Below, piece by piece: positions 7,882 to 8,368 of a stretch of DNA of 14,003 bases. Numbering within the stretch: the first letter of the stretch is position 1; the number at the start of each line of letters is the position of its first letter. Origin of the DNA: a virus (taxonomy: Duplodnaviria; Heunggongvirae; Uroviricota; Caudoviricetes); the IMG/VR virus record IMGVR_UViG_2778261395_000005; one strand, 5' to 3'. Under the pieces are notes generated by a model. That model had not been told where the DNA came from. It did no database searches and worked only from the letters and a program-made list of their open reading frames with translations. Made by a program: the position numbers and the translations under genes.

Positions 7882-8368
7882 ATGTCCGGGGAGTATGTTA
7901 AAGCTCGCGTGGATAATCCAACCGTAACTACTGTGACAATCGGATATGGTGGCACTGGTGCAAGTGCGTCGGTTGGTGCTCCCGGGGGAACAACCTCTTT
8001 CGGCAATACCATAATTGCCAAAGGTGGCCTTGGTGGGAATGTTCTTGCTGAAGGAACTGCTCCAGGGGTTGTTGGTCCGTATGGAGCATATACTGAGCCG
8101 GGATTTACAGGTGCAAATATTATCGGGTCTGGAAGCGGTTATAGCTCACCAGGCGTTCGGTATTCCGGCAGTCTGGCGATGGGGGGGGCCTGGCGGCGAT
8201 TCAATCCTTGGTGCGGGGGCTGGGTCACAAGCCATTGTAGGCGAAGGTATTAATGCTAATGGCCATGGTGGTGGAGGCGGTGGTGCCTGTGTCTACGGTG
8301 GAGCGACGCAGCAGCGTGCCGGAGGTAGCGGAATGGCTGGTATTGCAATCATTTGGGAGTATGCGTGA
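7882..8368 (+). pseudogene. Glycine-rich tail-fibre distal fragment, frameshifted at a G8 tract
   Basis: Gly-rich translation (GYGGTGASASVGAPGG… then, after a shift, …GGPGGDSILGAGAGSQAIVGEGINANGHGGGGGG…IAIIWEYA) spans two frames joined at the G8 run 8181-8188; its stop overlaps the tfa start (TGATG). The N-terminal part of a full fibre is absent. Confidence 0.55.
8181..8188. repeat. Homopolymeric G8 tract at the tail-fibre frameshift point
   Basis: Eight consecutive G; frame 7882.. is plausible before it and frame ..8368 after it; a G7 tract would restore one continuous ORF. Confidence 0.85.

Follow-up and report, generated by a model that had tools for sequence, protein, structure and literature searches.

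An eighth G at a glycine-codon tract in the truncated tail-fibre remnant of a defective Escherichia coli B prophage

The 14,003-base stretch of DNA analysed here, which we refer to as the window, contains a defective prophage of about 12 kb that lies between ybhC and ybhB, beside bioA, in the att-lambda region of the Escherichia coli B lineage (Table 1). Its genes run in the order int, xis, small ORFs, an Rz1-like gene, terS, a terL-like gene, a portal remnant, a fibre remnant, and tfa, and they are followed at the right end by cargo consisting of two acyltransferases and a 445-aa ORF. The whole element is visible together with both host flanks, and Pfam and RefSeq annotation revealed no head, tail, or baseplate genes within it. 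The position expected of the terminase large subunit, directly after terS and before the portal, is occupied by a 540-aa ORF (5476-7098) that has no Pfam match at E <= 0.01 and is named "hypothetical protein" in most genomes and "TerL protein" in one.

When the window was aligned end to end with the genome of REL606 (NC_012967, 786534-800535), there was one mismatch and one gap. About 26 other complete genomes of the B lineage and its relatives scored the same as REL606, including those of BL21, strain C, NEB Express derivatives, ATCC 11303, and NCTC10537. The gap falls at a G homopolymer, which has eight bases in the window and seven in REL606, strain C, and BL21. The mismatch, a G-to-T change, is synonymous in an acyltransferase gene and sits at a homopolymer boundary. 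In the annotation of REL606, the tract is spanned by a continuous 144-aa coding sequence (WP_225089326.1) that ends at the start of tfa.

Table 1. Positions of the prophage and its features in the window.
Feature	Position	Strand	Evidence or remark
Whole defective prophage	1285..13526		Flanked by host genes ybhC (1-1284) and ybhB (13527 onward)
Truncated portal gene, 253 aa	7098..7859	+	Pfam Phage_portal_3 PF06381, E = 1e-55, positions 6-207 of the 357-position profile (~58%)
Deletion junction	7846..7849		Portal-derived to the left, fibre-derived to the right; alignment with three intact fibre genes
Upstream part of tail-fibre 3' remnant	7849..8253	+	tblastn/blastp against intact 641-aa fibre, residues 470-582; junction DNA alignment; translation
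G6 run in the same fibre remnant	7876..7881	+	G7 or G9 in some mutator-like E. coli B runs
G8 homopolymer	8181..8188	+	G7 in all close relatives examined; extra G shifts the fibre frame by +1
Downstream part of fibre remnant, +1 frame (PGGDSILGAG...IIWEYA, then stop)	8189..8368	+	Matches intact-fibre residues 581-641 with 100% identity
G5 run, 27 bases downstream of the tract	8215..8219	+	Frameshift variants here in other assemblies (P0013, P0028)
Tail-fibre assembly gene tfa, intact, 131 aa	8368..8763	+	Pfam Caudo_TAP PF02413, E = 2.6e-23; annotated in REL606
Acyl_transf_3 gene	8805-9830	-	
445-aa ORF between the two Acyl_transf_3 genes	10223-11560	+	No Pfam match
Acyl_transf_3 gene	11598-12773	-	
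Only other difference from REL606 and other B-lineage assemblies	11874		T in the window, G elsewhere (T4G3 to T5G2)

The G8 run is the sole homopolymer of G or C in the window that reaches seven bases. The upstream fibre frame opens at an ATG at 7882, passes through the tract, and stops at 8251-8253, yielding a product of 123 aa. Before the tract this glycine-rich frame reads ...GVRYSGSLAMGG, after which the product ends in an out-of-frame C-terminal tail, AWRRFNPWCGGWVTSHCRRRY. The downstream frame, which is shifted by +1, reads PGGDSILGAGAG...IIWEYA up to its stop codon. Removal of one G produces a single ORF of 161 codons, the TGA of which (8366-8368) overlaps the ATG of tfa (8368-8370) in the sequence TGATG at 8366-8370. 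This agrees with an earlier note made from the DNA letters, in which a tract of seven G was predicted to give one continuous ORF of about 160 codons with a stop that overlaps the tfa start.

As a run of letters, the tract is unremarkable. A G8 homopolymer appeared in 27 of 200 dinucleotide shuffles of the window, with a mean of 0.18, so that its occurrence in 14 kb is nothing unusual per se. What goes beyond chance is the exact coincidence of the G8 with a frame break that is defined by a homologue of 96% identity (E = 1e-107). In addition, a scan for promoters and terminators around the fibre remnant returned nothing exceeding the shuffled expectation. Between the convergent tfa and acyltransferase genes lies a perfect 26-base palindrome, TTATTAGGGGGGTACCCCCCTAATAA (8778-8803), which includes a G6 and a C6 run and which may act as a bidirectional terminator hairpin, though it was not flagged by the consensus scan. 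Its G6 and C6 runs are unaltered in the mutator-like contigs described below.

Comparison with an intact homologue reveals that both frames come from a single fibre gene, of which just the final quarter is present. Specifically, the repaired translation of the window matches residues 474-641 of the intact 641-aa fibre of a P2-like prophage (strain 2018-05-5CC) with 96% identity and without a gap (E = 1e-107). When the intact fibre was used as the query in tblastn, residues 470-582 were found in frame 2 and residues 581-641 in frame 3, which places the switch at the tract. Two claims of the earlier note are thereby borne out, namely, that the fibre frame changes exactly at the G8 of 8181-8188 and that the two frames belong to one gene, given that the alignment continues unbroken across the run. 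Yet the remnant comprises the last 168 of about 641 codons (~26%), and approximately 74% of the gene is absent. The in-frame, or "on," state therefore corresponds to residues ~474-641 of the 641-aa fibre only and is not a complete functional gene.

The missing part can be described in terms of both domains and DNA. After repair, the Gly_rich_2 profile (PF21722) was matched with 27.5 bits against a cut-off of 24.3, and the match covered profile positions 34-223 of 226, with the first ~33 absent. The N-terminal region of attachment to the tail or baseplate is absent along with the shaft: the upstream sequence is portal-derived, and similarity to the fibre begins at residue 470 of 641. In DNA alignments with three intact fibre genes, identity starts at ~7849 (TATCCCAATAATG), and the sequence to the left of this point is unrelated to fibres. 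The translated similarity begins at the same position (YPNNAAC...), and the ORF as it is present in the window extends from the ATG at 7882 to the stop at 8253. Two features of P2 gpH-like and StfP-like fibres with a Gly_rich_2 tip are retained, namely the C-terminal glycine-rich domain and a tfa chaperone gene immediately 3' of the fibre with overlapping stop and start codons.

The left side of the junction belongs to the truncated portal gene, whose stop codon falls within fibre-derived sequence and which RefSeq treats as a pseudogene that lacks its C-terminus. One deletion, running from portal codon ~250 to fibre codon ~470, took out the head, tail, and baseplate genes and the N-terminus of the fibre. 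As a matter of nomenclature, RefSeq (PGAP) gives the interval 7098-7859 the name "anti-CBASS protein Acb1 family protein," as opposed to the Pfam assignment of Phage_portal_3. The Acb1-family name looks like a misnomer, and the location after terL fits a portal.

This anatomy bears on what a change of one base in the tract could do. The earlier note offered a simple inactivating slip as one reading of the locus, and it is true that a one-base change in the run breaks the frame, the tract being G7 in 67 of the 67 complete genomes that contain the segment. The slip was not, however, the event that inactivated the fibre, since the first ~470 codons had already been deleted, what remains is fused to a portal gene, and there is no tail to carry a fibre. 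Even with seven G, the ORF of the window is still a headless fragment that starts by chance at an internal ATG or GTG.

The fibre tip is modular. The same C-terminal ~200 aa are found on at least four N-termini, which include StfP-like proteins of 315-316 aa, a MAKNDF-type of 363 aa, a MLRIGQ-type, and the P2-like fibre of 641 aa. The tip domain is usually followed by tfa and then by an acyltransferase, and this order is the same in Mu-like and P2-like prophages, such that tip, tfa, and acyltransferase appear to move together as a cassette. Two other contigs (L038 and L039, 3360-4321) carry an independent fibre-tip remnant, in which a 106-aa C-terminal fragment, tfa, and an acyltransferase adjoin a terminase fragment in a P2-like prophage. 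Because that remnant is independent, deletions that leave only the tip and tfa recur. In E. coli N32 (L003, 5281-6228), one open fibre frame of 315 codons is split by RefSeq into a "StfP" pseudogene without a C-terminus and a 205-aa "glycine-rich domain-containing protein." GenBank gives many copies of the tip the name "carbohydrate kinase."

To determine the usual length of the tract, we searched 5,426 complete E. coli genomes, viral contigs, metagenome contigs, and GTDB species representatives at the DNA level. The complete genomes contained 68 loci with the segment. The tract was exactly G7 in 67 of these, the remaining one being a diverged P2-like copy, and G8 occurred in none of the 68. 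All eight viral contigs with the segment had G7, as did six of seven metagenome contigs (the seventh had G6), and no match to the tract segment was found among the GTDB species representatives. These comparisons show G7 to be the in-frame ancestral state. In phage collections, there was no match by tblastn with the repaired fragment or by distant blastn; no free phage with an intact fibre of this type emerged, and the intact examples come from E. coli prophages. The null result of the protein search is probably due to low-complexity masking, and a close phage record of the fibre tip may be absent.

Variants other than G7 do exist in larger collections. Based on contig counts by context from a collection of 15 billion proteins, the B-type remnant is represented by at least 1000 contigs for the G7 ORF and by 3 for the G8 ORF. 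In the context of full-length StfP-type fibres, G7 is found on 276 contigs (128 + 42 + 106), G8 on 46 + 3, and G6 on 35. Within the same collection, the G8 allele (...SLAMGGAWRRF...) is present in StfP-type and MLRIGQ-type fibres, the G6 allele (...SLAMGGLAAIQ...) is present in StfP-type and MAKNDF-type fibres, and an allele that reads as expected of G5 (...SLAMGAWRRF...) is present in two contexts. Slips at the tract have thus recurred elsewhere, with G5, G6, and G8 alleles spread across at least three other fibre N-terminal contexts. Most places of the StfP-type G8 share one neighbourhood, a Mu-like baseplate module beside an EcoRII system. Across 12,091 bp, only 1 mismatch and the tract itself separate one such locus from its G7 counterpart in strain N32. 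The StfP-type G6 allele has a neighbourhood other than that of G8. From this distribution, it looks as though the variant alleles reflect a few independent slips, each of which was passed down one lineage.

In more diverged homologues, the run is not conserved as a repeat. In a P2-like fibre with 94% identity across the 90 bases that surround the tract, the codons of the Gly-Gly pair are GGT GGG, preceded by ATT and not ATG (ATT GGT GGG CCT). Likewise, in a homologue of ~80% protein identity, the AMGGPGG peptide is encoded by ATG GGA GGA CCT.

The E. coli B lineage offers its own record of slippage. The exact 123-aa ORF of the window is on three contigs, all from Logan assemblies of SRA runs. 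Two of these contigs were read (L020 and L021, from SRR6185057 and SRR6184923); they have the same remnant context, lack the T at 11874, and carry changes of their own, including C>T, A>G, and the expansion of C6 to C10 at 4617. With G8 on backgrounds that have their own lineage markers, the slip really occurs in B lineages. Furthermore, in at least 10 runs (Logan contigs L022-L031 of SRR6170939, SRR6172777, and runs SRR6184786-SRR6184987), G12C replaces G7CC at the equivalent of 8181-8190. This allele combines an expansion of the run with a C>G change at its edge, and it is accompanied by three patterns of other mutations. In the same runs, G6 has become G7 or G9 at 7876 and G5 has become G6 at 10024, while every base substitution is a transition. 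Transitions together with expansion of all long G/C runs are the signature of mismatch-repair deficiency, and the G12C runs are probably from repair-deficient E. coli B lines, which may derive from an E. coli B long-term evolution experiment. Alleles from G8 to G12 are therefore present in mutator-like E. coli B runs. With repair off, the tract slips readily, just as the other long G/C runs of the element do, and it is merely the longest of them. Since all long G/C runs expand in the mutator-like runs (C6 to C10, G6 to G7 or G9, and G7CC to G12C), this is a general homopolymer instability and not a property of the site.

We lean toward a real +1 slip as the source of the extra G, at a G7 run formed by the glycine codons GGG GGG and within sequence that had already lost its function. 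The run of seven arises solely from two glycine codons that follow an ATG in the glycine-rich domain of the fibre tip. An earlier deletion fused the truncated portal gene to fibre codon ~470, leaving a nonfunctional 3' remnant (the last ~26%). In an E. coli B-lineage strain, the longest G/C homopolymer of this defective att-lambda prophage would then have slipped during replication from G7 to G8. Given a remnant that was nonfunctional to begin with, such a slip would be neutral. It would have no phenotypic consequence and would represent decay at a mutational hot spot, not a regulatory device. The tract is one of only two differences from REL606 over 14,003 bases, the same G8 is found in L020 and L021, and G5, G6, and G8 recur in other fibre contexts, all of which count in favour of a real slip. 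We infer that the extra G is present in the DNA and not just in the assembly, and the remnant is presumably not expressed to any useful end.

Alternatively, the DNA could have seven G, as in all other B-lineage genomes, and the eighth could be a homopolymer miscall in the source assembly. We consider this less likely than a real slip, and it is the main rival explanation. An artefact would account for the fact that G8 is missing from all 68 loci in complete genomes, that the B remnant has G8 on 3 contigs versus at least 1000 for G7, and that the window is otherwise the same as about 26 B-lineage assemblies. Moreover, the sole other private difference (11874, T4G3 to T5G2) likewise borders a homopolymer, which is how errors of homopolymer-sensitive sequencing look. 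Arguing against an artefact, the identical G8 is in two other runs with consistent lineage-specific substitutions, and G8 alleles in other contexts are on dozens of contigs from NCBI, ENA, and Logan assemblies, which means that genuine G8 alleles exist.

That poly-G artefacts are present in public assemblies is suggested by a separate case. In one Logan contig (L037, 3981-3990), a G10 run at another Gly-Gly site (AKGGLGG) splits a diverged P2-like fibre into ORFs of 461 aa and 106 aa. We considered whether this was a second switch, or a sign of a poly-G switch across the family, and rejected the idea: six other loci read GGGGGGTTGGGT in frame (G6TTG3), and the G10 is in the one contig only. 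It is probably an artefact of poly-G assembly or sequencing, and it calls for caution over variants that are known from Logan assemblies alone.

The tract could also have a function in other prophages. In this scenario, the G7 tract that the mobile cassette of tip, tfa, and acyltransferase carries in intact Mu-like, P2-like, and lambdoid E. coli prophages would be a genuinely hypermutable tract that toggles the receptor-binding tip, and the B remnant would merely have inherited it. The basis for this idea is that G8 and G6 alleles occur on backgrounds almost identical to those of G7. We find it very unlikely.

For the window itself, the earlier note had raised a slipped-strand switch that turns the fibre on and off. 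On this reading, G7 (on) versus G8 or G6 (off) would control production of the fibre tip. The locus has one feature of a contingency locus, in that the homopolymer is within a coding region and a one-base change flips the frame. Longer and shorter alleles recur, with G8 and G6 together on ~84 contigs versus ~276 for G7 in the Mu-like (StfP-type) context, and one G8 locus has a near-identical G7 counterpart. The minority alleles (G5, G6, G8, and G12) come mainly from mutator-like runs and from single lineages. There is also precedent in phages, where hypermutable poly-G tracts have been described in receptor-binding genes of Campylobacter phages (Sorensen et al. 2021, Cell Rep 35:109214, as cited in PMC10877375). 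The likeness to these phages and to bacterial contingency loci is that a G-run in the coding sequence of a receptor-binding protein or fibre has a length that sets the frame. The Campylobacter phage tracts, however, are reportedly longer, variable within populations, and in control of intact genes, whereas the tract of the window is normally G7, nearly invariant, unconserved in homologues, and situated within a remnant.

Several lines of evidence speak against a switch. The "on" state in the window would still be a headless fragment of 161 codons in an element without tail genes, and the tract is G7 throughout the complete genomes. A run of seven G is also shorter than is typical of contingency tracts. 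If switching had maintained the tract, one would expect the repeat to survive in homologues; the run is instead interrupted by synonymous glycine codons, both in the relative at 94% over 90 bases (GGT GGG) and in that at ~80% protein identity (GGA GGA). Finally, each variant allele is mostly in one gene neighbourhood, which fits inheritance from single events. A tract that is essentially invariant in relatives, in a gene that is clearly dead elsewhere as well, is what the earlier note had itself named as grounds for abandoning the switch. For the locus in the window, the truncation effectively refutes it, and as an explanation we regard it as extremely unlikely. Recoding of the G8 sequence to a full-length product by ribosomal frameshifting or transcriptional slippage is less likely still: homopolymers can in general support transcriptional slippage, but nothing specific to this locus points to it, the split into two frames is absent from relatives, whose product is read from a single frame with G7 or no run, and the product would remain a fragment.

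The frameshift in the remnant has both parallels and differences among known systems. E. coli cryptic prophages carry tail-fibre and tfa remnants, such as stfE/tfaE of e14, stfR/tfaR of Rac, and tfaD of DLP12. As in these, a C-terminal fibre fragment and the tfa chaperone gene have survived within a defective prophage otherwise stripped of morphogenesis genes; the element studied here differs in its location at the att-lambda site of E. coli B and in its Gly_rich_2 tip domain (PF21722).

The earlier note also drew a comparison with the stf gene of laboratory lambda, which is apt as to the kind of lesion. The lambda stf gene is described as having originally been orf401 and orf314 (PMC2762979, citing Hendrix and Duda 1992), and in lambda PaPa a single-base frameshift splits it (Hendrix and Duda 1992, Science 258:1145, as cited in PMC2762979). 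In both cases, a one-base frameshift in a laboratory lineage results in two fibre ORFs just upstream of tfa. But in lambda PaPa the gene is otherwise complete and the phage is viable, such that repair restores fibres and fast adsorption. In the window, where ~74% of the gene and the entire tail are missing, repair restores nothing. The frameshift is thus not the only lesion in a complete gene of a functional phage, as it is in lambda PaPa, but one that accompanies a 5' truncation in a defective prophage. Lambda stf has also been found to undergo recurrent, independent one-base insertions and deletions at the same short homonucleotide run, which were attributed to polymerase slippage (Gallet, Shao and Wang 2009; PMC2762979). 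These indel hot spots match the recurrent G5, G6, and G8 alleles at the fibre-tip tract. The lambda mutants, however, were selected for loss of the fibre, and at the tract of the window there is no sign of selection.

Our analysis points to an ordinary event of a known kind, that is, homopolymer slippage or miscalling in a decaying prophage, and it carries little biological weight. Nevertheless, it has some practical implications. In a laboratory lineage as widely used as E. coli B (BL21, REL606), a private difference of one base such as the extra G warrants caution before it is called a variant. The ORF that RefSeq names "hypothetical protein," and that some GenBank records name "carbohydrate kinase," is a fragment of a fibre tip. 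More generally, the G-runs that arise from GGG GGG codons make glycine-rich fibre tips natural hot spots for frameshifts.
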